38,711 nt of DNA from an uncultured archaeon. GTDB taxonomy: Archaea; Hydrothermarchaeota; Hydrothermarchaeia; Hydrothermarchaeales; CAZSVW01. Position numbers and translations under genes: made by a program. This document shows, one piece after another, positions 1,453-15,925 of the stretch (positions are counted from its first letter, which is position 1; each line of letters opens with the position of its first letter). Where the stretch lies: NCBI GenBank assembly GCA_965613365.1, contig CBFDVL010000001.1:1-38711 (forward strand). Reading direction: 5' to 3'. The notes under the pieces are model-generated. The model worked only from the letters and a program-made list of their open reading frames with translations. It was not told the origin of the DNA and made no database searches.

Positions 1453-1624
1453 GTTTTGCCTCCTTCTGCAATCTTTCATCTAAAGTTCCATCGGGAAGCA
1501 TCCAATCTGGATGCACCTTGCCCTTCTCTTCCATTTGATAACGAATACAACTTTCCCAATCTCCTTTACAGTACAATTCTATCCACTTCTTATCTAACTT
1601 TCCTTTCTCATAAAACCTTTTCAT
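1430..1624 (-). CDS. Small conserved-looking Cys-containing hypothetical protein (64 aa).
   Basis: The ORF contains YCKGDWESCIRYQMEEKGKVHPDWMLPDG and is co-oriented with the MBL gene, overlapping its start by 23 nt. No function can be assigned from the sequence. Confidence 0.5.
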   Translation of the reverse strand: MKRFYEKGKLDKKWIELYCKGDWESCIRYQMEEKGKVHPDWMLPDGTLDERLQKEAKHESYDYL

Positions 1625-2455
1625 TGGACATTCCTGAGGATAAGGAAAGTTCCAGAAAAACCATGCTCTACAGGTTTCTGTCGAGAATAGAAGATAAGAG
1701 TTTCATTAACGTGATTTTGAGAATTCTAAACAAGCAGTGCGGGAGGAGAAGAAGAGGGAGAGCTTCTATCATAGTAGATTCCACAGACGTTCAGCTTGAC
1801 ATAAACTACTTTCGCAGGAGAATAAAGAAGGAAGATCTAGAGGATAGAGAGTTCAAGTGGGGCTACTCGCCCTCAAAAGGATACTACGTCGGCTACAAGC
1901 TCACTGTTGCTATAGACAAGAGCAATCTGATGCCCTTAGCCTTTCTTTTGCACGAGGGTTCGCCAAACGATGCCAAGCTTTTCTATCAGATATTGAAAGA
2001 GCTGAAAAAGAGGAGGGTAATCAGAAAAGGGGATGTTGTGATAGCAGATAAAGGTTACTACAGCTACAAAAACTACTTGAAAGGCATTACAAGGTTCAGA
2101 ATCGTTCCCTTAATTTCCAAGGAAGAACTTCAGTTTAAGCAGAGCTTTAGGTTTACTCTCCTATCCTCTGGATGTGTTTTGCTCCAATAGTCTTAGAAAG
2201 GATGTTTTCATAAAGTTGGCAAGGAAATTCGGGGAGATGATTTTAAAATGGGAGAGATACAGATCTATAAGAAGTAGAATGGAGGATTTGTTTAAGCTGG
2301 CCAAGAATGCTTTTTCCTTGGATAGATTGCACAGGTATACGAAGAAATCTGTTAAAAAGTTCGTTGGACTGAATGTCCTTTTACTGGGGATGGTTGTTTC
2401 AATGGGAATTAGGAAGAAAGAAGAGCTGCACAGGCTTGTTTACATGTAGATTTTG
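1625..2455 (+). mobile_element. Degraded IS4/IS5-superfamily DDE transposase remnant: N-terminally truncated and frameshifted.
   Basis: Two overlapping ORF pieces (to 2190, and 2174-2449) together carry a DDE_Tnp_1-like pattern: IIVDSTDV (D), VIADKGYYS (D) and RSIRSRMEDLFKLAK (E/K-R). Only about 50 aa precede the first D, so the DNA-binding N-terminus is missing. ORF-track residues encoded by 1456-1624 are just the antisense of the neighbouring gene. I could not find terminal inverted repeats. Confidence 0.7.
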
Positions 2456-3007: not shown

Positions 3008-6000
3008 TTAGCGGAAAGAAAATATTTTTTCTAAAACCTTTCTTTTTCCCTTCGCCTTCTCCAGAATCTCGGGAAGATTCCATACTGGTTTGAGCTTTAT
3101 CGCCTTGGTGGGACATACCTCTTCGCATTTTCTGCAACCTATGCAGAATAGGGCATTGTAGCTTATCTTTCCAAACCCATATGCTTTTTCTTCGGTAACT
3201 ATAACCTTCGCATGTTTTCTTTTAATTTTTTGAATTATCTCTATAAGCATTTTAATTTTTTCAGGTTTTTCTTCCATCGCTTCATACTTTTGCAAGTCTA
3301 TAACGCCAGAAAAAGTTAAGGCATCATCTGGGCAAACTTCTTCACAAGCTCTACATGCTATGCATTTTGTATTATCGCATTCAACCGTTACAAACCCGGG
3401 AAGCTCCTTTCTTTTAACCAAGGGTTCCCATTCTTTATCTATCTCTGTAACCTTAATCTCTCTCGGAGTTACCTTGTAGGATTCAAGAACATCGATAATC
3501 TTTTTAAGTTTCTCAATGTCCTCTCTTTCAAGATTAATATTCCTAATTCTACTCAAAAGTGTTTTAGCTTTTTCATTTTCCAGTAAAGATAGCGTTTTCT
3601 CAAGTCTTGCGAGAATTTCTTCTCGGGAAGGCTCAGATTCATATAAAGCCTTTATCTTAGCTATTTCCTGCTCATCCTTAAAGTGAAGAGCCTGAATAGC
3701 CCCTACTGGACATTCTGCTACACAAGCTCCGCATCCCTTGCAAAGAGCCTCGTTGATTTTTGCCACAATTTTACCAGAGTTATTAATTGTAAGCACAGGC
3801 GCATTGTAAGGACAAGCATCCAAACATACCCCGCAAGCAAGACAAAGTTCCTCATCGACCTTGGCGATACTTCCCTCTGCAATAACCTCTCCTTTAACAA
3901 GAGATATTAATGCGCGAGAAGCTGCTCCGAGAGCTTGGGATATACTATCCTGAATATTCTTTGGAAAGGAGGCAACACCACAAACATATATTCCCTCGGT
4001 GGCAAATTCCACCGGCTTAAGCTTGAGATGCGCCTCAAGGAAAAATCCATTCGCATCTAAGGGAACCTTAAGCATCTTAGAAAGCTCCTTATTTTCTTTA
4101 TGTGGAATTATAGGTGTTGAGAGCACAACTTTATCTACAATAAGCTTGACCTTTCGGTCAAGCGAGGGAGAATAAACCTCAATACTTAGCTTTTCTCCTT
4201 CCTTTTTGACCTCTGGGGGAGAATCTTCGCGGTATCTCAGGAATTTTATACCTTTTTCAAGAGCTAGGGAATAAAGCTCCTCTTCACCCTGACCAAAAGT
4301 TCTTATATCCCTGTAAATTATGAAGACCTCGCTATTGTTGAGATTTTTAATCTCTATCGCATTTTTTATTGCATTATAGCAACAAATTCTCCCACAATAT
4401 TGTCTTTCCTTATCTCTTGCTCCCACACAAAGTATTATCGCATAGCTTTTTTCAACTTTGCCTTTCTTTAATTCTTGCTCAAGTTCAAAAACCGTTATAA
4501 CGTCTTCATACTCTCCATAACCATAATGACCAAAAGGTTTAAGAATTTCTCCTCCGGTCGCTAAGATTATACTACCAACGGTTATTTCCTTATCCCCAAG
4601 CCTCACCTGAAAGTTTCCTACATAACCTGAGATATCCTTAATTGTGGTTGAAGCGTAAATTTCGATGTTTTCATGGTTTTTAACCTTTTCAATTAAAGAC
4701 TTAACAATTTCTTCTCCATTTTTAAGTTCTCTTGCTATTCCTCCAAGCTCTTTCTCCTTCTCCACGAGATAAACCTTAAATCCATGATTAGCTATGCTTA
4801 GAGCACAACTCATTCCCGCTACTCCTCCACCTATTACAAGAGCAGAGGGAGTAACGGGTATTCTGTAATCATGCAAAGGTTCTAACAACCTCGCCTTTGC
4901 TACAGCCATTCTTACTAAATCCTTGGCTTTTTCGGTAGCCTTCTCGGGCTCGTTCGCATGAACCCAAGAGACGTGTTCTCTAATATTGCACATTTCAAAT
5001 AGGTAGGGATTGAGCTTAGCCTCTTTCAAAGTTTTTCTGAAAAGAGCTTCATGCGTTCTTGGTGTGCATGCAGCTATAACAATGCGGTTTAGCTTATGCT
5101 CCCCTATCGCTTTCTTTATCTTCTCTTGAGAATCGATCGAACATGCAAAAAGGCAATCTTCAGCATGCTTTACATAAGGCAAGCTTTTAGCATACTCAAC
5201 CAGAGCTTTGCAATCAACTACGCCAGCGATATTTTTACCACAGTGGCAAATGAACACGCCTATCCTCGGCTCTTTGCTTAGCTCTTTTTCTGGTACCTCT
5301 TTCTCTTCTTCTTGTTTTTTCTCTGGTATGCCAAGAAGCTCGGAAACCTTTGCACTCGCAGAAGAAGCGAGAGCGACAGAATCGGGAATATCCCTCGGAG
5401 ATAAAGCTACTCCGGCTATAAATATTCCCTCTCTACTCGTCTCCATGGGTGAGAGGTCTATGTTTCTGGGCTTGAAAAAGCCGTATTCGTCGGTTTCTAT
5501 TCCCAAAATCTCCGCAAGTTTTCTATTATCCTTGGGAGCAACGAGCGCTGAACTCAAAACTACAAGCTCAACCTCTAACTCCTTAGTCTCGTTGCTCTCG
5601 GTATCCTCGTATCTAAGAATAAGATTGTTGTTTTCTGTTTCTATTATTCTGGAAACCCTGCTTCTTATGTATTTTATGCCATTCGCTTTTGCTTGCTGAT
5701 AATATTCTTCAAAGCCCTTACCATAAGCTCTTAAATCCATGTAAAAAATGTAGCTTTCAAGCTTTGGATTATGCTCCTTGGCTATCATAGCTTGCTTGGT
5801 TGCAAACATACAGCAAACCCTTGAGCAATACTTATTGCATTTAACATCTCTTGAACCTACGCATTGTAACCAAGCTATTTTCTTAGCTTCCCTACCATCA
5901 CTAGGTCTAACCACTTTACCTTGAGTTGGACCACTAGCTGAGAGCAAACGTTCAAATTGTAGCGAGGTTATAACATTTTTATAAACCCCATAGCCATATT

Positions 6001-6604
6001 CTGGCTTAGCCCTTGGGTCAAACTCCTCGAAGCCTGTAGCAACTATTATTGCACCAACGTTAAGCTCTACTTCTTCTTCACCAGCGTTGAAATCTATGGC
6101 ATCGGCTTCGCATACTAACGAGCAAAGCCTACAACCAATGCATGCTTCCTCATCTATCTTATAGACTAAAGGAAAAGCCTGAGGAAAGGCTACGTAAATC
6201 GCCTTTCTTGCTCCTAAGCTAAGGTCAAACTCGTTTTCTTTAACCACTGGGCAAACGTCAGCACATGCTCCACAACCCGTGCATTTCTCGGGGTCTACAA
6301 AGGTTTTTTTTCTTTTAACCTTTACCTTAAAATCTCCAGCTTTTCCCTTAACCTCAACGACCTCGGAATTAACGAAAACCTTAACATTTGCATGTCTTCC
6401 AACTTCGACCATTCTCGGAGCAAGAATACAGGTGGAACAATCATTTGTGGGGAAAGTCTTGTCAAGTCTTGCCATATTTCCGCCTATGCTTGGTGTTTTC
6501 TCCACAAGAAATACGTCGTAGCCCTTATCAGCTAAATCAAGGGTTGCTTGCATCCCAGCGACTCCACCGCCTATTACTAAGCAAGCTTTAACCTTGTTTT
6601 GCAT
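3008..6604 (-). CDS. hdrA: Giant HdrA-like flavoprotein (1198 aa): two tandem HdrA-type FAD units with ferredoxin domains and an extra C-terminal di-ferredoxin tail.
   Basis: Two GGGVAGM Rossmann motifs are present (N-terminus and about aa 600). HdrA-type signatures seen: DCSTCILAP, CSRVCC/CGRICC and GVFICHCGKNI. There are multiple CxxCxxCxxxC(P) motifs, including CIACRACEEVCP and CIGCRKCEEVCP in the tail. Confidence 0.85.
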   Translation of the reverse strand: MQNKVKACLVIGGGVAGMQATLDLADKGYDVFLVEKTPSIGGNMARLDKTFPTNDCSTCILAPRMVEVGRHANVKVFVNSEVVEVKGKAGDFKVKVKRKKTFVDPEKCTGCGACADVCPVVKENEFDLSLGARKAIYVAFPQAFPLVYKIDEEACIGCRLCSLVCEADAIDFNAGEEEVELNVGAIIVATGFEEFDPRAKPEYGYGVYKNVITSLQFERLLSASGPTQGKVVRPSDGREAKKIAWLQCVGSRDVKCNKYCSRVCCMFATKQAMIAKEHNPKLESYIFYMDLRAYGKGFEEYYQQAKANGIKYIRSRVSRIIETENNNLILRYEDTESNETKELEVELVVLSSALVAPKDNRKLAEILGIETDEYGFFKPRNIDLSPMETSREGIFIAGVALSPRDIPDSVALASSASAKVSELLGIPEKKQEEEKEVPEKELSKEPRIGVFICHCGKNIAGVVDCKALVEYAKSLPYVKHAEDCLFACSIDSQEKIKKAIGEHKLNRIVIAACTPRTHEALFRKTLKEAKLNPYLFEMCNIREHVSWVHANEPEKATEKAKDLVRMAVAKARLLEPLHDYRIPVTPSALVIGGGVAGMSCALSIANHGFKVYLVEKEKELGGIARELKNGEEIVKSLIEKVKNHENIEIYASTTIKDISGYVGNFQVRLGDKEITVGSIILATGGEILKPFGHYGYGEYEDVITVFELEQELKKGKVEKSYAIILCVGARDKERQYCGRICCYNAIKNAIEIKNLNNSEVFIIYRDIRTFGQGEEELYSLALEKGIKFLRYREDSPPEVKKEGEKLSIEVYSPSLDRKVKLIVDKVVLSTPIIPHKENKELSKMLKVPLDANGFFLEAHLKLKPVEFATEGIYVCGVASFPKNIQDSISQALGAASRALISLVKGEVIAEGSIAKVDEELCLACGVCLDACPYNAPVLTINNSGKIVAKINEALCKGCGACVAECPVGAIQALHFKDEQEIAKIKALYESEPSREEILARLEKTLSLLENEKAKTLLSRIRNINLEREDIEKLKKIIDVLESYKVTPREIKVTEIDKEWEPLVKRKELPGFVTVECDNTKCIACRACEEVCPDDALTFSGVIDLQKYEAMEEKPEKIKMLIEIIQKIKRKHAKVIVTEEKAYGFGKISYNALFCIGCRKCEEVCPTKAIKLKPVWNLPEILEKAKGKRKVLEKIFSFR

Positions 6605-7166
6605 TCAACCACCTTTCTAGCTCTTCTAAAGCTTTTTCCTTTTCTTGCTCTGAGCTTACCGCAGAGAGCTGGAGAATGAGCTCAATCAGCCTTCTTCTTT
6701 TTGGCGGAAGTTTTTCCGCCTCCTCGCTAAGCTTAATCTTTCTTGAACTTCTATATCTTAAGGGGGAAGCTCCAAGCTCTTTTATCTCCGCAACAAAATC
6801 TTCAACAACTCTCTGGAATTTTTTTCCTTCTGAAGCCGAAACCCATTCAAGCCTAAGCCTTTTTGGATTTATACCTATACTCTCCATTAAATTTCTTACA
6901 AACTCCACTCTTCTCTTTGCCATTAGATTTCCGGTTATGTAATGACATTCGCCTGGGTGGCAACCTGAGATTAAAACACCGTCAGCACCAGCAAGAAATG
7001 CTTCAAGGATAAAATTTATGTCTATTCTACCAGTACACATCACTCTTTGTATTCTTATGTTCGCTGGATATTGAAGTCTGCTAACCCCAGCCAAATCTGC
7101 TCCGGCATAGCTACACCAGTTGCAAAGAAAGGCAATGATTTTTGGTTGAAAGTTCTCATTGTTCAT
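6588..7166 (-). CDS. mvhD: MvhD/FlpD-like protein (methyl-viologen-reducing hydrogenase delta-subunit family).
   Basis: Reads IIAFLCNWCSYAGADLAG...RVMCTGRID...GADGVLISGCHPGECHY, the typical MvhD Cys pattern. It overlaps both neighbours (11 and 17 nt). Confidence 0.85.
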   Translation of the reverse strand: MNNENFQPKIIAFLCNWCSYAGADLAGVSRLQYPANIRIQRVMCTGRIDINFILEAFLAGADGVLISGCHPGECHYITGNLMAKRRVEFVRNLMESIGINPKRLRLEWVSASEGKKFQRVVEDFVAEIKELGASPLRYRSSRKIKLSEEAEKLPPKRRRLIELILQLSAVSSEQEKEKALEELERWLNAKQG

Positions 7167-9036
7167 CGTTCATCCTCCTTACTTTTTCAACATATCTTTT
7201 TGCCTCATATCCAAAAAGATATAGAGACTCAACTTTTTTACCCAATCCTATTTCTTCTAAGATAGCGTTAGCCAGCTTGACCTGAGTTTCAGCATATTCG
7301 TTACCTTTTAAATAATGACATCCTCCTTCTCCACAGCCTGTTATCAAAACCTTCTCTGCTCCAAGCTCAATGGCTTTGAGAATTTCAACCACAGAGAGTC
7401 TGCCAACACAAGGCAAAGGAACGGGCAAAATATTCGCTGGATAAGTATAGCCTAAGGCTCCGGCCATGTCTATAGCCGAGTACCCACATTCATAGCAAAC
7501 AAAATTTACAATTGGCTTCTCTATCTCTGTATCTTTGAGAAGTCCCTCAAGATATGCAAATGTTTCTTCTTTGTTATTGAGCGGTAACTCAATTGCATTA
7601 TAAAGGCAGGAAGCAAGGCATATTCCGCAAGCTTTACATTCAAGTTCATTTATCTTTGCTTTGCCATTGCTCATTATAATAGCGTTGTGCGGGCAAACCT
7701 TAGCACATATTTCACAACCAACACAAAGTTTCTCATTTACTCTTGCAGAAGCTTTTTTCTCCTCGAGACTTTTCAACATTTTTATTACCTTTGCTACAGC
7801 TGCCTCGCTTTCTGCTATGCGTTCTTCTTCATCCTTTATACCGGTTGCACCTCCGCATACATATACTCCAAGCTTTTTAGTTTCCACTGTTCTGAGTTTT
7901 GAATAAAGCCTTTTAAAGAAACCATATTTGTTTAGCTCAATTCCTAAAATCTTCGCAAGTCTCCTATTGTCCTTCGCGGGTATAAAGGCACTTGCCAAAA
8001 CCCCAAGGTCTGCTTTAATATTAATAAAATCCTGAGTTAGGGTATCTTCGATTGCTATAAGCAAATTTCCATTCTCTGAAGCTATTGAGGAGGGCTTGCC
8101 ACGAATAAATCTTATTCCGAGTTCTCTTGCTTCCTTGAAATATTTTTCATTTTTCCCATAGGTTCTTATATCCATGTAGCAGATGATAACGCTTGCCTTG
8201 GGGTTCGTTTTTTTGATCTCGATCGCATTTTTTATAGCTAATGTGCAACAAATCTTAGAACAATACTCATGATAGCTATCTCTTGACCCAACGCATAAAA
8301 TAAAAACGACTTTTTCTATGTCTTTGAGTTTTTCTATGTCTTTATCTTTATACAAGATCTCTGCAAGCTCGCTCTGGGTTATAACATTTTTATAAACCCC
8401 ATAGCCATATTGCTTTATTTCATAGGGTTTCCATTCTTCAAAGCCTGTAGCAACTATTATTGCACCAACGTTAAGAGTTTTTTTAACACCATCGTTTGAG
8501 ATTAGTACTTTAAAATTACCCGCAGAACCAGAGATCTCTTCAATCTCAGAGCTTTCAACAACGTACGAAGTATAACCAAGGTTTTTGAGTTTTAAATTTG
8601 CGTGAAGACCTTCTTTTGTATTACCTATTATGAGAACGCTTTTTTTTACTTTTGATTCCTCAGAGTCAAAAGCAAAGGTTTTAGACTTTTTTATTTTTTC
8701 GATGCCCGCCTTTATTAGCGCCTTTGCTTTTTTGTTTGCCTCTATCTTATTGTCTCTATGAGGATAGGCACATTGCTCTCTTATATTCACGAATTCTAAC
8801 CTAGCTTTCGCATGTCTTTTAAATCTCTCTCCATAAATCTGGGGAGAGCAGGCAGAGATTACAATTTTCTCTTCCTTGCATTTGCTTAACTCTTGCAAGC
8901 CTTCCTTAAGGCAAAGGTTATTGTGGATTTTTACAAATTCCACACCCTCTATACCTTTAATATACTCCGCAATCTCCTCAAGGTTGAGAACCTTTGAAAT
9001 CTCGCCATTACATGAGCAGAGAAAAACGCCTACCAT
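7156..9036 (-). CDS. HdrA-like protein with a degenerate dinucleotide-binding motif, a C-terminal 2x[4Fe-4S] ferredoxin and a fused MvhD domain.
   Basis: The N-terminal domain reads MVGVFLCSCNGEI. IIGNTKEG stands where the paralogues have IIGGGVAG. The ferredoxin motifs are CVGCEICAKVCP and CKACGICLASC. The C-terminus (FVCYECGYSAIDMAG...CVGRLS...ITGCGEGGCHY) is MvhD-like. Confidence 0.8.
   Translation of the reverse strand: MVGVFLCSCNGEISKVLNLEEIAEYIKGIEGVEFVKIHNNLCLKEGLQELSKCKEEKIVISACSPQIYGERFKRHAKARLEFVNIREQCAYPHRDNKIEANKKAKALIKAGIEKIKKSKTFAFDSEESKVKKSVLIIGNTKEGLHANLKLKNLGYTSYVVESSEIEEISGSAGNFKVLISNDGVKKTLNVGAIIVATGFEEWKPYEIKQYGYGVYKNVITQSELAEILYKDKDIEKLKDIEKVVFILCVGSRDSYHEYCSKICCTLAIKNAIEIKKTNPKASVIICYMDIRTYGKNEKYFKEARELGIRFIRGKPSSIASENGNLLIAIEDTLTQDFINIKADLGVLASAFIPAKDNRRLAKILGIELNKYGFFKRLYSKLRTVETKKLGVYVCGGATGIKDEEERIAESEAAVAKVIKMLKSLEEKKASARVNEKLCVGCEICAKVCPHNAIIMSNGKAKINELECKACGICLASCLYNAIELPLNNKEETFAYLEGLLKDTEIEKPIVNFVCYECGYSAIDMAGALGYTYPANILPVPLPCVGRLSVVEILKAIELGAEKVLITGCGEGGCHYLKGNEYAETQVKLANAILEEIGLGKKVESLYLFGYEAKRYVEKVRRMNDEQ
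8243..8475. repeat. Copy A of a 233-bp, 100% identical direct repeat shared by two adjacent HdrA-like genes.
   Basis: A base-by-base comparison with 9493-9725 (offset exactly 1250 bp) shows no mismatch. Flanking bases differ on both sides (8242 t vs 9492 g; 8476 a vs 9726 c). Confidence 0.95.
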
Positions 9037-10259
9037 TACCTTAAGTCCTCCATCACATTTATAGCTACTTGAGACGCTTGAGTAATGCTTTCAGGCACAT
9101 CTTTTATGCCTGAGGCACAACCGCAAACATATACCCCTGCTCTTGCCTTTCCACCATTTTCTGTTATGATAAATCCATATTCATCTTTATTTAGACCTAA
9201 AAGCTTTGCTATTTCTTCTGTCCCCTTTGATGGGATTAAAGCAGGGGTTAGAACTACCAAATCGCACTCTATAAGCTTAACCTCATTGCAAAGCGTATCT
9301 TCTACGCTCACTAAAAGCTTCTTATCTTCTCTTTGAATGACCTCTCCAGGCTTGCCTCGAAGGAATTCTACACCTTCCTCTCTTGCTCGTAGATACCACT
9401 CCTCATATTCACCTACGGTTCTTATATCCATGTAGCAGATTATGACTTCCTTGCCAAGCTTTTTTAAAGCTCTCGCATGCTTTATCGCATAGGTGCAACA
9501 AATCTTAGAACAATACTCATGATAGCTATCTCTTGACCCAACGCATAAAATAAAAACGACTTTTTCTATGTCTTTGAGTTTTTCTATGTCTTTATCTTTA
9601 TACAAGATCTCTGCAAGCTCGCTCTGGGTTATAACATTTTTATAAACCCCATAGCCATATTGCTTTATTTCATAGGGTTTCCATTCTTCAAAGCCTGTAG
9701 CAACTATTATTGCACCAACGTTAAGCTCTACTTCTTCCTCGCTTTGCTCAAGGTTTATGGCTCCTTGCTTGCATACTTCAACACAAGCCTTACAATGGCT
9801 ACACTTATTAATATCAATAGTGCAAACCTGAGGCAATGTTCTATAATCAAAATAAATAGCACCGCTTTTACAAACTTCAATGCAAGCCTTACAGAGAGTG
9901 CATTTATTAATGTCTATGTAACGAGGATGTTTTATCAGCCTAACTAGAAAATTTCCTTTTTCCCCTTTCACTTCGGCTAAGGAAGTATTGGTTAGGATGT
10001 CAAGATTTTTAATCTCGCTTAGACTCAAACGATAGAAGCACTTTCTTATGCCTTTAAGAAATTGTGGCGAAGCGAGACAAAAGGAACAATCTTTGGTGGG
10101 GAAATATTCATATAAGTTCAAAGCATTTCCACCAAGATAGGGCTTTTTCTCAACGAGATAAACTTCAAAACCAAGCTCCGCTAATTCTATGCTTGCTTGC
10201 AGTCCGGCTACTCCTCCACCAATAATGAGGACTTTTTTATTCATGCTTTCATTTTTCAC
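9036..10259 (-). CDS. hdrA: HdrA-like FAD (TrxR-like) unit with an inserted 2x[4Fe-4S] ferredoxin.
   Basis: Contains VLIIGGGVAGLQASIELA, DCSFCLASP, CTLCKACIEVC, CSHCKACVEVC and CSKICC. Its stop overlaps the next gene's start as TAATG at 9034-9038. Confidence 0.8.
   Translation of the reverse strand: MKNESMNKKVLIIGGGVAGLQASIELAELGFEVYLVEKKPYLGGNALNLYEYFPTKDCSFCLASPQFLKGIRKCFYRLSLSEIKNLDILTNTSLAEVKGEKGNFLVRLIKHPRYIDINKCTLCKACIEVCKSGAIYFDYRTLPQVCTIDINKCSHCKACVEVCKQGAINLEQSEEEVELNVGAIIVATGFEEWKPYEIKQYGYGVYKNVITQSELAEILYKDKDIEKLKDIEKVVFILCVGSRDSYHEYCSKICCTYAIKHARALKKLGKEVIICYMDIRTVGEYEEWYLRAREEGVEFLRGKPGEVIQREDKKLLVSVEDTLCNEVKLIECDLVVLTPALIPSKGTEEIAKLLGLNKDEYGFIITENGGKARAGVYVCGCASGIKDVPESITQASQVAINVMEDLR
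9493..9725. repeat. Copy B of the 233-bp identical direct repeat.
   Basis: Identical to 8243-8475. Both copies encode ...NVGAIIVATGFEEWKPYEIKQYGYGVYKNVITQSELAEILYKDKDIEKLKDIEKVVFILCVGSRDSYHEYCSKICCT. Sub-blocks of 35 and 47 nt recur at 5965-5999 and 6029-6075 in the 1198-aa gene. Confidence 0.95.
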
Positions 10260-10268
10260 AATTATTTA

Positions 10269-10793
10269 TCATGATTTATCATTATTGAAAATCGCGCAAG
10301 CTTTAGAAGGCCTGTCATGATTTGATAATCCGAGTTCCTTTGCAATCCTTCTTACTTCCTGCTTTGTTATGCCAAGCTCCGCCAACGGACTTCTTATTCC
10401 AAGTTCTCTCAAAGCTTTTATTCCCGGTCTATGGGAGTGCAAATCATCCTTGTTTGTTCCATCGACTATTGTTTTTATTCCTCTATCTCTTGCGATTTTT
10501 ATAATGTTTTGCATCATGGCCTTTTTGCAATAGTAACATTTTTTATCCTCGCTTTTGTAGAATTCCTCTGGTAGCTTGTGTTCAAATATTATAAGCTCTA
10601 TTCCGATCTCTCTCGCAATCTTTATGGCATGCTCAAGTTCTTCTAATGGAAGAAGCTCGGAAATTGCAATAGCTGCAACCGCATTACCTTTCAAAACATC
10701 AAAGGCAACCTTGGCAACTACACTGCTATCCACACCACCAGAAAAGGCAACGAGCACAGAGGTTTTATCTCGAAACCATAAGAAAAGCTCCAT
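10269..10793 (-). CDS. PP-loop ATP pyrophosphatase of the LarE/COG1606 type (sulfur-transferase family), unusually short.
   Basis: Contains VLVAFSGGVDSS (SGGxDS PP-loop), CYYCKK, VDGTNKDD and RPSKAC. The protein stops about 8 aa after the LarE-type PSxAC cysteine, at 174 aa, where family members as I recall them are about 260 aa. Confidence 0.65.
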   Translation of the reverse strand: MELFLWFRDKTSVLVAFSGGVDSSVVAKVAFDVLKGNAVAAIAISELLPLEELEHAIKIAREIGIELIIFEHKLPEEFYKSEDKKCYYCKKAMMQNIIKIARDRGIKTIVDGTNKDDLHSHRPGIKALRELGIRSPLAELGITKQEVRRIAKELGLSNHDRPSKACAIFNNDKS

Positions 10794-10830: not shown

Positions 10831-11886
10831 ATGATGCTTTACCTTGTAAGATATGACGAAATAGCTTTGAAGTCCGAGCATGTAAGAAAAAAATGGGAAG
10901 AAGTTTTGATAAAAAACATAGAGCAAGCAATAGATTGCAGCATAAGTAGAGAAAGGGGAAGAATCTGGGTTTATAGCGAAGATGAGAAAGCTAAGGAAAA
11001 GCTGAGAAAAATCTTTGGAATTACATCTTTTTCTCCTTGCATAAGCTGTGAGCTTGGCAATTTAAAGCATGAGGCTATGAAATTTGCTGGGGAGGTTTTA
11101 AAGGATAAGAAAAGCTTTGCCCTTCGTGTAAAAAGAGTAGGTAAGCATAGCTTCACCTCAATAGATGTAGCAAGAGAGCTTGGAGAAGAGATAATAAACA
11201 AAATTCCAATAAAAGTAGATTTAAAATCTCCAGAAAAGGAAGTTTTCATAGAAATTAGAGAAAACCGATGCTACATCTACGATGAGATTATACCTGGAGT
11301 CGGAGGACTGCCTCTTGGGGTAGAAGGGAAGGTAATCTCTCTATTCTCTGGAGGGATAGACTCGGGCGTTGCGACTTGGTTAATGATGAAAAGAGGCTGC
11401 GAGGTCATGCTTGTGCATTTTTATATAAGCAAAGAGAGCTACGAATCCGCATGCCTATGCTATGAGGTTTTAAAAGAATATAATCCCGAGCTTAAGCTTA
11501 TAAAGATCGAGCATTCTGATTTTCTAAGGAAAATTGATAAGCAAAATTATACGTGCATACTATGTAAGAGAGAGATGCTGAGAAAGGCTCAAGAAATAGC
11601 TATTGAAATAGGAGCTAAAGGAATAGTAACGGGAGACTCTCTTGGTCAGGTAGCTTCTCAGACCCTTGATAATCTATTTGTGATAAGCCAAGCTATTTAT
11701 TACCCAATCTACAGACCTCTGATAGGAATGGACAAACAGGAAATTATTTCGCTTGCCAGAAAAATCGGAACCTACGAGAAATATCTCGAAGCTCCTCAGC
11801 TTTCTTGTCCATATGCTCCAAAGAAACCCGTGGTAAAGGCAGAGCTTGATAAGGTTTTGGAGATTGAGAAATGCTTAAAGAGGTAG
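10831..11886 (+). CDS. thiI: tRNA 4-thiouridine/thiamine sulfur-transfer protein ThiI (THUMP plus PP-loop, no rhodanese domain).
   Basis: Contains YDEIALKS..., the LFSGGIDSGV PP-loop, CILCKREM (CxxC) and a third Cys in LSCPYAPKKP. This matches the three-Cys archaeal ThiI type. Confidence 0.85.
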   Translation: MMLYLVRYDEIALKSEHVRKKWEEVLIKNIEQAIDCSISRERGRIWVYSEDEKAKEKLRKIFGITSFSPCISCELGNLKHEAMKFAGEVLKDKKSFALRVKRVGKHSFTSIDVARELGEEIINKIPIKVDLKSPEKEVFIEIRENRCYIYDEIIPGVGGLPLGVEGKVISLFSGGIDSGVATWLMMKRGCEVMLVHFYISKESYESACLCYEVLKEYNPELKLIKIEHSDFLRKIDKQNYTCILCKREMLRKAQEIAIEIGAKGIVTGDSLGQVASQTLDNLFVISQAIYYPIYRPLIGMDKQEIISLARKIGTYEKYLEAPQLSCPYAPKKPVVKAELDKVLEIEKCLKR

Positions 11887-11888
11887 AG

Positions 11889-12545
11889 ATGATAAAATCT
11901 GGGAAAAAGTTGAAAGATTATATTGCAGAGGATATTAGGTTTAAGCTTGTAATAAATGGCAAAAGCTTTACCTTCAGAATATCGCCCATGCTCAAGGAGG
12001 AGTTTGTCATAGGATATTGCTTTGGAGAAGGTCTTATAGAAGACCTTGAGGATTTTAAGGAAATAAAAATTGAAAAAAATGTAGCCAAAGTTAAAATTAA
12101 TATTAAAAAGAGGAAATTATCCAAAATAAACTCTGATCTGGTTGTATCCTACAAAGAAATAATCGAAAGCATGGAAAGACTTAAAAACGAATCAGAAACC
12201 TGGAGGAAAACCGGTGGAGTGCACATTTCTGCCATTGTTAGCGGGGAAGAGTTTATTTTGGTGGAGGATATTAATAGACATGCATGTATAGATAAGCTTT
12301 TGGGAATAGCTTTGAAAAGGAGCTTAAAGTTCTCAAACTCCTACGTGGTTTGCAGTGGAAGATTATCCGAAGGGAGAGTTAAAAAGATAATTATGGCGGG
12401 CGTGCCAATAATTGCTTCGATGGCAGCGCCTTTATTCTCTAGTGTCGAATGCGCAAAAAAATATGGGCTAACTCTCGCAGGTTTTGTGAGAAATGGAAAA
12501 ATTAATATATATTCTTGCCCTGAAAGAATTAGAAACGAGGTGTAA
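11889..12545 (+). CDS. fdhD: FdhD-family protein (Mo-bisPGD sulfuration/insertion accessory) lacking the CxxC loop.
   Basis: Contains FVIGYCFGEGLI, TGGVHISA, NRHACIDKLLG, CSGRLS and LTLAGFVR. The ATG at 11889 is preceded by GAGGT; an alternative in-frame ATG lies at 11871. Confidence 0.75.
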   Translation: MIKSGKKLKDYIAEDIRFKLVINGKSFTFRISPMLKEEFVIGYCFGEGLIEDLEDFKEIKIEKNVAKVKINIKKRKLSKINSDLVVSYKEIIESMERLKNESETWRKTGGVHISAIVSGEEFILVEDINRHACIDKLLGIALKRSLKFSNSYVVCSGRLSEGRVKKIIMAGVPIIASMAAPLFSSVECAKKYGLTLAGFVRNGKINIYSCPERIRNEV

Positions 12546-12547
12546 AA

Positions 12548-12985
12548 ATGGAAGTGGAAGGATTTGAACTTAGGGAAGATTTGTACTATGACCCATGGGG
12601 CGCATACATTTGGGCTAAGGTTGAAGGAGACATGGTAATTGTAGGAATAACCCCGTTAGGAGTAGCGGTTGCAAAAGACTTTGCTTATATGGAGCTTCCT
12701 TTTGAGGGGGATGAAGTCAAGCAAGAAGAAGCCTTCGGAGTAATTGAAACGATCAAAGCCACGGGTGAGCTTCTTGCTCCAGTTAGTGGAGAAGTGGCAG
12801 AGGTAAATGAAGAGGTAAGAAGCGACCCTGCAAGCATAAAAGAAGCACCTTACGAAAAATGGTTAATCAAAATAAAGCCTTCTAACTTGGAAGAGGAACT
12901 TAAAAACTTAATGGACTTCGAAAAAGCCAAAGAATGGTATGCTGAAGAAATTAAAAAGCTTAGAGAAGACGAAGTAATAGAATAA
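12548..12985 (+). CDS. GcvH-like lipoyl-carrier protein.
   Basis: Contains GVIETIKATGELLAPVSGEVAEVNEEV...PYEKWLIKI, the GcvH lipoyl-lysine signature (E-x-x-K ... PVSG-x-V-x-E-x-N). GAGGTG precedes the ATG. Confidence 0.8.
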   Translation: MEVEGFELREDLYYDPWGAYIWAKVEGDMVIVGITPLGVAVAKDFAYMELPFEGDEVKQEEAFGVIETIKATGELLAPVSGEVAEVNEEVRSDPASIKEAPYEKWLIKIKPSNLEEELKNLMDFEKAKEWYAEEIKKLREDEVIE

Positions 12986-13123
12986 TTCTTTTCTTTTTTA
13001 TTATTTTAGAAAATATATTTCTAAAAGAGTGAAAAGAAGCATTTTAAATTTAATTTAATCAAAAGATTTAAATAGGTTTTAGATATAAGTTAAATAATAC
13101 CGGTGAAGGAGGTGAAGTGTCGG

Positions 13124-15925
13124 ATGAGCGAAAATTTTTCGGAATTTATGAAAGACAGAGCTAAGGTGTTTAAATTTCTTTCGGCAATCTACAGAGACGA
13201 AATACCAAAAGAACTTCTAAGTAAGATGAAGGATGAGAAATTTTTGACAGCGATTTCAAAGGTTCCCGGAGGAGAAAAACTCGCTGAAGTTATGAAAGAT
13301 GCAGATGTAGATAAGGTTTTTAATGAGCTTAGATATGAATATGCAGATATCTTTTTGAATGCTGGTGTAACTCCAGTTTTTCCATACGAATCAGTTTACG
13401 TAACCGGCGAACCATTAGTAATGCAAAAGCCAGTTTTTGAAGTAAGAAAATTTTTCAGAGAGGCTGGAGTACATAAATCAGAAGACTACCCTGACTTAGA
13501 TGACCACATTGCAGTAGAATTTGAATTCATGAGGTATCTCTGTGAGAACGAGAAAGTAGAGCTACAGGCAAACTTTGTGGCCGAGCATTTCAAATGGATG
13601 AAGGACTTCTGCGACAACCTGAAGAAATATTCTCAAGCAGATTTCTACAAGGCTGTAGCAGAATTAACTGAAAGCATAGTTTCAATGGAAGAGAAAATAG
13701 TAGATGACATAAAAAATTCTAAACTTCCAGAAGCATCAATTGTAGATGCAATAAAAGCTATCGCAGAAGCAGTGAATGTACTTGACATTGGAGATGAATA
13801 TGTAACCATAAAAGAGGGAGCCAAGCCTGAGGAACCAGAAAAGATAATAAATACTCATTGCTATCTCTGTGGTGGATTATGCGGCCTGAGAATAACAGTG
13901 AAAGATGGCATAATGGTAAAGGTCGCTGGCTTACCAGGAGACCCAAAAAGTGGAGGAATGATATGTCCGAAGGGAGCTTCGAACATACAGCACACTTATA
14001 GTGCCTATAGATTAAAGTGGCCTCTAATAAAAGAAAATGGAAGGTTTAGAAAAGCTACTTGGGAAGAAGCTATGTCAAAGTTTGCAGAGTTGCTCAAGAG
14101 TATAGAACCTTCAAAGGTAGGCTTCCTGAGAGGCAATAATTTCAATGCTTGGCTAACTGCGGGCGTTTTCAAAGCCTATGGAGCTTATGTAACTACCCAT
14201 AGGCCAATGTGCGATAACAGCATAAGAATGGCCAATGAACATAACCTTAATGACAAGAGACCATGGATAGATTATAGGGAGTCTGATTATATCATTCTCT
14301 GGGGAGTAAATGAAACGTGCACTTCCTATGGAAGAAGGAAAGTAAAGTTCTTCCAAGACGCTCTCAAGAGAGGAGCAAAACTTGTGGTATTTGATACAAG
14401 GAAAAGCGAGGTTGCAGAGCTTGCAGATGAATGGATCGCTCCAAAGCCTGGCACAGATGGCGCAATAGCAATGGCAATGTGCTATGTGATAGTGAAGAAT
14501 GAGCTTTACAATAAAGAATTCGTTGAAAACTGGACATATGGTTTTGAGGACTTCAAGAAAAGATTACTTGGTGAAGAAGATGGAGTGCCAAGAACTCCGG
14601 AATGGGCTGAAAAGATAAGTGGCGTGCCAGCAGCTACGATAGAAAGAATAGCAATAGAATTTGCAAACGCAAAGCATCCAGCAACAATATGCTGGGCAGG
14701 TATAGCCCAGACTCCAAATGGATTCTATGCTACACAGGCAATAATGGCATTAAATGGATTAATGGGGACATTTGATGCACCCGGAGGGCCAAGCCTACCA
14801 TTCAAGCGCAAGCTAAAGAGCCCATTTGGAGATGGGCCCAAGCTACCAAACAACTCACCAAAGGAAAAGCTTGATAAGGCAAAGATGTGGGCTGGATGGA
14901 TTCCCGCATACTTCCCGAGGGATGTTGAGGAAGGTAAGCTTCAGGCTTTGGTATGCTATTGGGGTTCTCCAGTATTGTCATGGACTAATCAAGACGCCGC
15001 AATAGAAGCTCTCAAGAAGCTTAAATTCATAGTGACGATAGACGCTTTTATGAATAACACCGCAACACTGAGCGACCTCGTAATTCCAAGCGTATCGAGC
15101 TTAGAAATGGAGTGGATCCATCCAGATTGGTTATATGATGCCTTCATATCTTCGCATAGAAGAGCAATAGACCCGCTATTCAATTGCAAGCCAGAATGGT
15201 GGATCTTCATAGACTTGGCTAAGAGACTCGGATTTGGAGAATACTTCCCATCCGATGACATAGAATACTACCTCAGAAACATGCTAAAAGGTACGCCATG
15301 GGATTATGATGAACTCATGGAAAAAGGCTATATAATAACGGATAAGGCAGAATACTACAAATACAAGAAGTGGGGTAGCCTTAATCCACCAGAAGGTTAT
15401 GGCTCATCAGGCAAAACCAAGACGGGCAAATATAACTTCAAGAATCCAGTAGCAGAGGAAAAGGGCATAGACCCGCTTCCAGACTACAAGCCTATCGAAG
15501 AAGAGTATCCAGAGCTTGTACCCGACGAGAAGTATCCACTTATTGCTCAGAGCTTTAGATTGTTGCAACATGAGCATAGCTCAACCTTTAATAATCCATA
15601 CTTAATGAAACTTAGAGGAACAAATCCACTTTGGATTAATCCTCTAGATGCCAAGGAGAGAGGAATCGAGAACGGAGATAAGGTGATAATCGAATCTCCA
15701 TGGGGCAAGGCAGAAGCTACCGCTTATGTAACATGGAAAATTAGACAAGGTGTAGTAGGTGCTGCGGGCGGCTTTGGACACTGGCGTGGATTAGAAGCAG
15801 ACCCAAGGTTCCCGCAGTATGGTGGATTTAACATCGGCGGACTAATGCCTCCGAACTATCCAGATAAATATGGCGGAAATCCTCTCTTGAAATACATAAA
15901 AGTGAACGTCAGAAAAGCAGAGTAA
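13124..15925 (+). CDS. Fusion protein: a TorD/DmsD/NarJ-type chaperone domain (about 230 aa) joined to a molybdopterin (MopB/DMSO-reductase superfamily) catalytic subunit.
   Basis: N-terminal part: RAKVFKFLSAIYRDE...ELRYEYADIFLNAG...PYESVY...DDHIAVEFEFMRYL (TorD-like). This is followed by HCYLCGGLCGLRI...ICPKG (an N-terminal CxxCxxxC...C 4Fe-4S motif), a candidate Mo-ligand Cys in THRPMCDNS, and a MopB C-terminal barrel (INPLDAKERGIENGDKVIIESPWG). No RRxF twin-arginine motif is visible. The ATG at 13124 follows GAAGGAGGTGAAG. Confidence 0.8.
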   Translation: MSENFSEFMKDRAKVFKFLSAIYRDEIPKELLSKMKDEKFLTAISKVPGGEKLAEVMKDADVDKVFNELRYEYADIFLNAGVTPVFPYESVYVTGEPLVMQKPVFEVRKFFREAGVHKSEDYPDLDDHIAVEFEFMRYLCENEKVELQANFVAEHFKWMKDFCDNLKKYSQADFYKAVAELTESIVSMEEKIVDDIKNSKLPEASIVDAIKAIAEAVNVLDIGDEYVTIKEGAKPEEPEKIINTHCYLCGGLCGLRITVKDGIMVKVAGLPGDPKSGGMICPKGASNIQHTYSAYRLKWPLIKENGRFRKATWEEAMSKFAELLKSIEPSKVGFLRGNNFNAWLTAGVFKAYGAYVTTHRPMCDNSIRMANEHNLNDKRPWIDYRESDYIILWGVNETCTSYGRRKVKFFQDALKRGAKLVVFDTRKSEVAELADEWIAPKPGTDGAIAMAMCYVIVKNELYNKEFVENWTYGFEDFKKRLLGEEDGVPRTPEWAEKISGVPAATIERIAIEFANAKHPATICWAGIAQTPNGFYATQAIMALNGLMGTFDAPGGPSLPFKRKLKSPFGDGPKLPNNSPKEKLDKAKMWAGWIPAYFPRDVEEGKLQALVCYWGSPVLSWTNQDAAIEALKKLKFIVTIDAFMNNTATLSDLVIPSVSSLEMEWIHPDWLYDAFISSHRRAIDPLFNCKPEWWIFIDLAKRLGFGEYFPSDDIEYYLRNMLKGTPWDYDELMEKGYIITDKAEYYKYKKWGSLNPPEGYGSSGKTKTGKYNFKNPVAEEKGIDPLPDYKPIEEEYPELVPDEKYPLIAQSFRLLQHEHSSTFNNPYLMKLRGTNPLWINPLDAKERGIENGDKVIIESPWGKAEATAYVTWKIRQGVVGAAGGFGHWRGLEADPRFPQYGGFNIGGLMPPNYPDKYGGNPLLKYIKVNVRKAE

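Follow-up and report, generated by a model that had tools for sequence, protein, structure and literature searches.

A TorD-type chaperone domain fused in frame to a predicted cytoplasmic Psr/Phs-like molybdoenzyme in an archaeal contig and in a conserved family of archaea and bacteria

NarJ is the redox enzyme maturation protein (REMP) of NarG, a non-exported enzyme carrying molybdenum bis(pyranopterin guanine dinucleotide) (Mo-bisPGD); it binds the N-terminal region of NarG, aids cofactor insertion, acts as a separate protein and leaves the mature NarGHI complex. How chaperones of the TorD/DmsD/NarJ type bind the core of the apo-enzyme and hand over Mo-bisPGD is an open question in the field. 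TorD has a second binding site on the core of TorA and helps cofactor insertion without a signal peptide (PMC10609526). Among Psr/Phs-like molybdoenzymes, the MOLY cluster of sulfur-cycling Desulfobacterota comprises MolyA, MolyB and the TorD-like MolyC (PMC12998232), and a cytoplasmic PhsAB-like enzyme rises during thiosulfate disproportionation (PMC13490349); a fused enzyme is mentioned in neither report. In the present study, a contig of 38,711 nucleotides from an uncultured archaeon of the Hydrothermarchaeota (GenBank assembly GCA_965613365.1, contig CBFDVL010000001.1, positions 1 to 38,711, hereafter the window) was analysed. It contains a gene in which a REMP of the TorD type and an enzyme of the MopB superfamily are joined in one chain. 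Both are known kinds of component.

The open reading frame (ORF) of the fusion protein was present where an earlier note on this DNA had placed it (Table 1), and all motifs quoted there were found, i.e. RYEYADIF, PYESVY, DDHIAVEFEFMRYL, KPEEPEKI, HCYLCGGLC...C281 and THRPMCDNS. The protein matched four Pfam models, all above their curated cut-offs. In the N-terminal module, which carries the motifs YEYADIFLNAG..PVFPYES and DLDDHIAVEFEF, PF02613 (Nitrate_red_del, TorD family) matched residues 53-163 with an E-value of 3.4e-24 and 85.9 bits against a cut-off of 22.2, and the NCBIfam TorD model gave 81.7 bits. A profile made from residues 1-238 of 20 family members matched Shewanella TorD (1n1c) across TorD residues 2-200 (E 1.5e-27) and Escherichia coli DmsD (E 1e-9); no NarJ structure was among its matches, the likeness being to TorD and DmsD. 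The AlphaFold2 (AF2) model of residues 1-238 reached a predicted local distance difference test score (pLDDT) of 92 and a predicted template modelling score (pTM) of 0.91. When this model was searched with Foldseek, the significant matches were solely REMPs, namely DmsD, YcdY, TorD, AF0173, AF0160 and TtrD. The TorD-family identity that had been proposed for residues 1-230 was thus highly significant by sequence as well as by fold. Profile alignment placed the DmsD pocket motifs PPWGS and EPEDH opposite FPYES and DLDDH of the fusion protein, and the REMP pocket motifs aromatic-xxLF, PW/Y-x-S and E/D-x-x-D-H were present as YADIF, PYES and DLDDH, invariant or nearly so in the fused family. The ratio of non-synonymous to synonymous substitution (dN/dS) against the nearest relatives was lowest in the catalytic part (0.019), with values of 0.065 in the TorD part and 0.077 in the linker; the latter two are thus under strong purifying selection, and the chaperone domain is kept by selection and not decaying. 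Neither an RR nor a KR pair occurs in residues 1-245, and no twin-arginine translocation (Tat) motif was found at any of 118 family N-termini, so that the absence of such a motif, already remarked on in the earlier note, extends to the family.

The remainder of the chain is assigned by its sequence to the Mo/W-bisPGD (MopB, dimethyl sulfoxide reductase) superfamily, with cofactor binding predicted. As had been claimed before, a CxxCxxxC...C Fe-S motif and full MopB domains follow the linker: PF04879 (Molybdop_Fe4S4, residues 240-293), PF00384 and PF01568 all exceeded their gathering cut-offs. The residues of the FS0 motif, H245, C246, C249, C253 and C281, were invariant in 32/32 aligned family members, as were H359, R360, M362, C363, D364 and N365 across the aligned family. 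In a pairwise HMMER alignment Cys363 lined up with the Cys of ...SVSLCTAP... in Thermus thermophilus PsrA, which is the Mo ligand Cys173 of that enzyme, and Cys363 is the predicted protein ligand of Mo/W in the fusion protein. Foldseek gave E-values of about 1e-40 to ArrA, PsrA, Nap and Fdh. The nearest solved relatives of the catalytic body were T. thermophilus PsrA (PDB 2VPW; phmmer E 2.6e-60, Foldseek TMt 0.80, ~27% identity), acetylene hydratase as the second best (E 1.7e-46, TMt 0.78) and ArrA. No curated NCBIfam family was reached: the best model, PhsA (NF012032), gave 269.8 bits against a cut-off of 694, Fdh-alpha (TIGR01591) 257 against 666 and DmsA/YnfE 253 against 778. The automatic names 'thiosulfate/polysulfide reductase chain A' and 'DMSO reductase chaperone' are both unjustified.

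The fusion is not a one-off; as judged from the matches obtained, it marks a widespread, tight and conserved family. A search of 5.8 billion protein clusters listed 120 matches, of which 118 were full length (904-973 aa), and all of these 118 had the same four domains at 54-89% identity. The members came from Deltaproteobacteria/Desulfobacterota, Desulfobulbaceae, Archaeoglobus/Archaeoglobaceae and Ca. Hydrothermarchaeota, in NCBI, ENA, JGI and Logan assemblies, and a search with the TorD part only added fragments from Ca. Electrothrix (cable bacteria). The closest genome match was a Ca. Hydrothermarchaeota metagenome-assembled genome (L006, 91% identity), followed by Archaeoglobaceae (68-69%). 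The gene was in frame in 80 metagenome and 6 genome loci, and the junction was conserved as ...Y.T(L/I).EG.....P.K...THCY.CG. Since the same in-frame junction recurs in at least 118 independent clusters and in about 88 loci of different assemblies, the fusion is not an assembly artefact; this recurrence carries more weight than verification of the junction in the reads of a single contig. Two of the checks proposed in the earlier note, domain calls and a search for the same fusion in other genomes, came out in its favour: Pfam and NCBIfam confirmed the four domains, and the fusion is real, being in frame across archaea and bacteria with a linker under purifying selection. The REMP trait of being a separate, dissociable protein was absent from all intact members, and the TorD-only search for a stand-alone version of this TorD clade gave just fragments and partial proteins.

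The isolation of the family was examined by an exhaustive HMMER scan of 1.84 billion representatives at 50% identity. The whole fused family was covered by one representative (P0008, 1535 bits), and the next full-length relatives gave at most 304 bits at 29-36% identity. Matches to these relatives began at about residue 240 of the query, showing that they are unfused; about one-third of them had a Tat motif and two-thirds had none, and their best curated model was PhsA, always under its cut-off. In a neighbour-joining distance tree with the nearest unfused relatives the fused proteins were monophyletic and shared a single long stem. The archaeal members branched within the bacterial ones, a pattern that fits a single fusion and later transfer between the domains. 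A different fusion, exemplified by P0291, joins a PF02613 TorD domain to an enzyme of the DmsA/YnfE subfamily (TIGR02166, 867 bits, above cut-off). Among the best 120 clusters of a follow-up search, ~35 had this architecture; unfused DmsA proteins of ~745 aa were interspersed with them. Its carriers include Anaerocolumna, Treponema and the isolates Lachnospiraceae bacterium ZAX-1 and Natroniella sulfidigena. The TorD-DmsA family is independent of that of the window protein, and TorD-client fusion has therefore arisen at least twice. Further unusual fusions were observed among the MopB relatives (P0194, P0322, P0256 and P0365); the forms seen were MopB with a class-V aminotransferase/cysteine-desulfurase (1139 aa), MopB with an [FeFe]-hydrogenase large-subunit domain (1158 aa), a 4Fe-4S ferredoxin domain with MopB (910 aa) and TorD with a DmsA-type MopB and several 4Fe-4S ferredoxin domains (1170 aa).

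The acidic linker described in the earlier note was present with its KPEEPEKI sequence, but it is not a floppy tether; in the AF2 models it is an ordered extension of helix and strand packed on the TorD module. Lying beyond the canonical TorD end, it consists of an amphipathic helix (204-218), a strand (229-231) and then the acidic KPEEPEK, and it follows the family pattern A..LA.A...L.L...Y.T(L/I).EG. Its pLDDT exceeded 90 in the full-length model and was 88-96 in the model of residues 1-238; as the values stay this high without the enzyme body, the linker is taken to be an ordered part of the TorD module. The full-length model, with a pLDDT of 89.9 and a pTM of 0.91, shows the fusion protein as one confidently assembled body. 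Residues 70-100, which hold conserved pocket motifs, had a pLDDT of ~95 in the full-length model and 77-80 in the truncated one. This drop upon removal of the body is indirect evidence that the pocket surface faces and contacts the catalytic body. The linker was also considered as a possible fossil of a Tat signal peptide, for which no usable signal emerged: a hidden Markov model of the linker (residues 198-243) gave at best 2.2 bits against the N-termini of 45 Tat-bearing unfused relatives, compared with 4.3 bits for shuffled controls (Mann-Whitney p 0.04); HMMER alignments of P0212 and P0275 ran into the signal-peptide region and were not significant. A pLDDT below 50 was observed in three segments only, all of them highly conserved even by the standard of the family (Table 1). 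They probably form loops in contact with cofactor or substrate, whose modelling would require the cofactor.

On balance, the protein is probably a soluble cytoplasmic Psr/Phs-like Mo/W-bisPGD enzyme that is matured in cis by its own fused TorD-type chaperone. The cytoplasmic location agrees with the proposal of the earlier note that the chaperone domain occupies the position of the signal peptide: a complete REMP would stand at the N-terminus, where exported relatives carry a Tat signal peptide. Tat proofreading and release are not needed for a non-exported enzyme, which would have allowed the genes of chaperone and client to merge. Action of the TorD domain on the catalytic body of the same chain is inferred. 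Tethered through the ordered helix-strand linker, the module would hold the nascent body in a cofactor-competent state and aid insertion of Mo/W-bisPGD, corresponding to the 'core-binding' activity of TorD and NarJ. Given the precedent of NarJ and NarG and the core-binding site of TorD, maturation in cis would require no signal peptide. In its mature form the enzyme would carry FS0 as its single [4Fe-4S] cluster, along with a Mo/W centre ligated by Cys. No gene for a PsrB/PsrC-type partner adjoins the fusion gene in the window and none is conserved across the 88 loci compared below, in line with the earlier statement that no PsrB-like or membrane-anchor gene is adjacent; the neighbours are a gcvH-like gene upstream and a NUDIX gene on the opposite strand downstream. 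Because such dedicated partners are lacking, electrons would pass to or from a soluble carrier, e.g. ferredoxin, with which the enzyme would exchange them through FS0. It is speculative that the adjacent fdhD may provide a sulfido ligand to the cofactor in this archaeon.

The genomic context of the family was compared by clustering the genes up to four positions from the fusion gene across 88 loci. The commonest neighbours were response-regulator/sigma54/PAS-kinase genes (31), a TauE/SafE (PF01925) permease (29) and small membrane proteins. Of the 34 loci whose flanks measured at least 3 kb on either side, 22 contained TauE, and in 19 of them it was no more than 3 kb away; in the Archaeoglobaceae it directly adjoined the fusion gene in every locus, usually together with a LysR regulator. 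PhnD-like binding proteins and sensor (histidine) kinases also recurred. The bacterial TauE/SafE neighbours (L091 gene +2, L054) are proteins of ~563 aa in which a signal peptide is present and ~250 aa at the N-terminus form an extracytoplasmic domain that no Pfam model matches; in the archaea, the neighbour is a plain permease of 339 aa. Sigma54 promoter matches with up to two mismatches were found in 21/83 bacterial loci and in 9.6% of control windows, a weak enrichment that was not used.

The best guess for the substrate is a sulfur oxyanion of the thiosulfate, sulfite or tetrathionate class, a tentative assignment that falls somewhat short of an even chance. It is favoured by the linkage to TauE, the PhnD-like sensors, the basic residues at the metal site and the restriction of the family to lineages with dissimilatory sulfur metabolism. 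The basic residues R336, R360, R368, K378, R379, K561, R562 and K563 are invariant around the ligand segment and the conserved loop 551-564, and would fit an anionic substrate. TauE is a proposed sulfite transporter (cited in PMC3949148), and a TauE/SafE protein rises together with a companion membrane protein during thiosulfate disproportionation in Dissulfuribacter (PMC13490349). The combined view is unlikely when all its parts are taken together, i.e. that TorD is docked via the surfaces used by free REMPs, both fusion families being natural single-chain REMP-client complexes, and that the enzyme is a cytoplasmic sulfur-oxyanion oxidoreductase of the thiosulfate or sulfite type working with TauE/SafE in Archaeoglobi, cable bacteria and sulfate reducers.

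Several observations weigh against maturation in cis of a Psr/Phs-like sulfur-oxyanion enzyme. The PhsA equivalog score lies far under its cut-off (270 against 694 bits). The pairwise HMMER sequence alignment sets Gly337 opposite His145 of PsrA and a gap opposite Arg332. fdhD is a neighbour in this lineage only, and the fusion gene is seemingly under its own promoter. No TauE gene was found in the window within 13 kb upstream or 22 kb downstream, so that the sulfur-oxyanion proposal rests on the relatives. A stably docked TorD domain, finally, suits a permanent structural role as well as a chaperone role.

This last point leads to the alternative that survives best, namely that the TorD domain has been exapted as a permanent structural, gating or partner-docking domain, e.g. 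as a lid of the substrate funnel or a dock for the electron donor. The placement of TorD within one rigid body (pTM 0.91), a linker that is ordered instead of flexible, the absence of a dedicated electron-transfer partner encoded nearby and the strong selection on the module, as expected for a domain needed through the life of the enzyme, would all be explained. All peptide-binding pocket motifs of DmsD and TorD have been retained, however, and the independent TorD-DmsA fusion is more simply explained by a shared ancestral relation of chaperone and client than by two exaptations. Exaptation is thus rather doubtful as a replacement for the chaperone role, with which a permanent structural role is compatible.

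A non-redox Mo/W enzyme with hydratase or hydrolase activity, comparable to acetylene hydratase, is an improbable identity, although it would explain the missing electron partner. Acetylene hydratase, which ranks second among the solved relatives, is a cytoplasmic monomer with a Cys ligand and a single [4Fe-4S] cluster. Its Asp following the second FS0 cysteine is essential, but this residue aligns with Gly250 in the fusion protein, where the family consensus is CG(A/G)LCG, and PsrA is closer by both sequence and structure. An identity as acetylene hydratase was rejected on account of Gly250. Canonical PsrA/PhsA was likewise rejected as an identity, the protein being under the PhsA cut-off and having neither a Tat signal nor PsrB/PsrC genes. 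A formate dehydrogenase is very improbable. The upstream fdhD and the 257 bits obtained with TIGR01591 point in this direction, but the score is far under the required 666, no other lineage has fdhD near the fusion gene, and the ligand context M-C-D-N has no His after the Cys and no selenocysteine (Sec). The observation in the earlier note that the Cys/Sec-His dyad of formate dehydrogenases is lacking was correct, and on this ground and the score below the curated limit the identity was rejected. That the fusion results from a frameshift or mis-assembly joining separate torD and mopB genes is scarcely credible: the TorD part is a separate ORF in two loci, L092 (6001-8773) and L093 (6001-8794, with two overlapping ORFs), but the split in L092 coincides with deletion of the CxxCxxxC segment and a change of frame, i.e. 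with damaged sequence, both loci are likely pseudogenes or assembly errors and not genuine two-gene forms, and the recurrent in-frame junction and the linker dN/dS speak against it.

Two start codons are available to the fusion ORF, GTG at 13103 and ATG at 13124. The ATG is probably the start, because the Shine-Dalgarno-like GGAGGTGA sits 8 nt upstream of it. The gene probably has its own archaeal promoter, as suggested by the TATA-like box TTTAAATA and by an oligo-T tract that precedes this box right behind the stop codon of the gcvH-like gene. The upstream genes thiI, fdhD and gcvH-like are translationally coupled, with a 16-nt overlap and then a 2-nt gap. The same order is found in L006, and the trio is shared by an identical metagenome contig (L012); the thiI/fdhD neighbourhood was absent from all other family loci in the clustering of 88 loci. 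The fdhD neighbour is thus specific to this lineage (window, L006, L012), and the family-wide partner is the TauE/SafE permease. The three genes form an odd trio of sulfur-transfer and lipoate-carrier proteins that may serve in sulfuration of the cofactor, and GcvH-like proteins are known partners of sulfur-oxidising Hdr-like systems.

Table 1. Features of the fusion gene, its product and its upstream neighbours, with window positions (aa, residues of the fusion protein)
Feature	Position	Strand	Basis or remark
thiI	10831-11886	+	Pfam, NCBIfam
fdhD	11871-12545	+	Pfam, NCBIfam; 580 nt upstream of fusion gene
gcvH-like gene	12548-12985	+	Pfam, NCBIfam; immediate upstream neighbour
TATA-like box TTTAAATA	13067-13074	+	read off the sequence
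Shine-Dalgarno-like GGAGGTGA	13108-13115	+	8 nt 5' of ATG 13124; from the sequence
TorD-MopB fusion coding sequence, 933 aa and stop	13124-15925	+	ORF list; four Pfam domains; 100% identical protein P0001; at least 118 full-length fused homologues
TorD/DmsD-type REMP module, aa 1-197, all alpha-helical	13124-13714	+	PF02613, NCBIfam TorD, 1n1c profile, Foldseek, dN/dS
Ordered linker, aa 198-240 (modelled)	13715-13843	+	pLDDT, conserved pattern, dN/dS 0.077
FS0 [4Fe-4S] motif H245-C246-x2-C249-x3-C253	13856-13882	+	invariant 32/32; PF04879
Fourth FS0 ligand C281	13964-13966	+	invariant in 32/32 aligned family members
Molybdopterin oxidoreductase domain, aa 296-701	14009-15226	+	PF00384, full model 1-353, E 6.9e-35
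H359-R-P-M-C363-D-N with predicted Mo/W ligand Cys363	14198-14218	+	alignment with PsrA; invariance
Low-pLDDT segment, NDKRPW loop, aa 377-379	14252-14260		full-length AF2 model
Low-pLDDT segment APGGPSLPF, aa 552-560	14777-14803		full-length AF2 model
Low-pLDDT segment EYYKYKKWGSLNPPEGYGSSGKT, aa 742-764	15347-15415		full-length AF2 model
Molybdopterin dinucleotide-binding domain (Molydop_binding), aa 808-922	15545-15889	+	PF01568, E 1.1e-16

The gene content of the window is archaeal (Mre11-Rad50-HerA-NurA, XPD, the RFC large subunit and DUF2226). A minus-strand cluster at 3008-10793, divergent from thiI-fdhD-gcvH, contains HdrA-like and MvhD-like genes and a PP-loop ATPase. Its products are a double HdrA-like protein of 1198 aa with many 4Fe-4S domains, an MvhD/FlpD protein (192 aa), an HdrA-MvhD fusion (626 aa), an HdrA-like protein (407 aa) and the PP-loop ATPase (174 aa); no HdrB/HdrC or hydrogenase genes were found in the window. 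The cluster is a possible flavin-based electron-bifurcating module and could in principle be an electron source for the fusion enzyme. Its adjacent HdrA-like genes at 7156-9036 and 9036-10259 (minus strand) share a direct repeat of 266 nt, 95% identical, at 8210-8475 and 9460-9725, which encodes an identical stretch of ~75 aa, NVGAIIVATGFEEWKPYEIKQYGYGVYKNV...CSKICCT, in both proteins. The repeat resembles the outcome of a recent conversion event between these tandem paralogues, or else of a collapsed assembly. Near the window start, a DDE transposase (PF01609) ORF with a TTG start (1456-2190, plus strand) lies beside a gene of the metallo-beta-lactamase fold and is possibly an insertion sequence.

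In a subgroup of bacterial loci (L007 15511-20013, L009 13174-17753, and also L018-L020 and L093) genes for a small membrane protein and a PAS histidine kinase lie 3' of the fusion gene. Beyond them comes a second MopB set, in which an unfused MopB is accompanied by a 4Fe-4S subunit and by a NAD(P)H oxidoreductase resembling GltD; the set may be of the 'cytoplasmic PhsAB-like' type of sulfur disproportionators. In L092 an Rnf cluster was observed 3' of the fusion gene.

In the literature searchable in full text, the main survey and the main review of REMPs included, no description of a natural TorD/REMP-client fusion of either family was found, and the words 'fusion' and 'fused' do not occur in the text of the REMP survey by Bay et al. 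(2015). The databases already hold hundreds of proteins of the family, some of which are labelled in IMG as 'anaerobic selenocysteine-containing dehydrogenase/TorA maturation chaperone TorD', i.e. with both COG names. A conserved fused chaperone and client, partly from thermophiles and with a confident AF2 model, is a target for crystallography or cryo-electron microscopy and for a dissection of cis and trans action. If TorD is indeed docked via the surfaces of free REMPs, such a structure could reveal at high resolution, for the first time, the hold of a REMP on the core of its enzyme. The two fusion families show that a REMP can stand in for the signal peptide at the gene level where export is given up, an event that occurred at least twice. 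The family represents a conserved, predicted cytoplasmic molybdoenzyme shared by Archaeoglobaceae, Ca. Hydrothermarchaeota, cable bacteria and sulfate reducers, and its genetic linkage to TauE/SafE permeases makes it a candidate for a missing piece of cytoplasmic sulfur-oxyanion metabolism.

Compared with known systems, the fusion protein resembles PsrA (T. thermophilus, 2VPW) and PhsA in its FS0 motif and in a Cys Mo ligand at the aligned position. In contrast to the fusion protein, which is predicted to be cytoplasmic and begins with a TorD domain, those enzymes are exported, face the periplasm, carry a Tat signal and work with PsrB/PsrC. Acetylene hydratase of Pelobacter acetylenicus (2E7Z), a W-bisPGD enzyme without partner subunits, is like the fusion protein in the Cys ligand, the single [4Fe-4S] cluster and the cytoplasmic, monomeric form, but it has no TorD domain, and its catalytic Asp beside the FS0 cysteine is replaced by Gly in the fusion. 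The chaperone of the MOLY system is encoded by a separate gene and its enzyme is predicted to be extracellular, unlike the single-chain cytoplasmic fusion (PMC12998232). The PhsAB-like enzyme differs in its separate B subunit (PMC13490349), and the MopB, 4Fe-4S and GltD-like set beside the fusion gene in some loci may be compared with it. The TorD-DmsA/YnfE fusions of Clostridia, Halanaerobiales and Treponema have the same layout of N-terminal PF02613 and MopB in 940-1050 aa; their catalytic body, however, is of the bona fide DmsA/YnfE subfamily and shares just 29% identity with that of the window protein. Stand-alone TorD (Shewanella massilia, 1N1C) and DmsD (E. coli, 3EFP) show the same all-helical fold and pocket motifs as the fused module, which differs from them in being covalently joined to its client, in an additional C-terminal helix and strand, and in a client without a Tat peptide. 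The closest functional precedent is the pair NarJ/NarG, in which the chaperone likewise acts in the cytoplasm without export; NarJ dissociates from its enzyme, whereas the fused module is tethered and is similar in sequence to TorD and DmsD.

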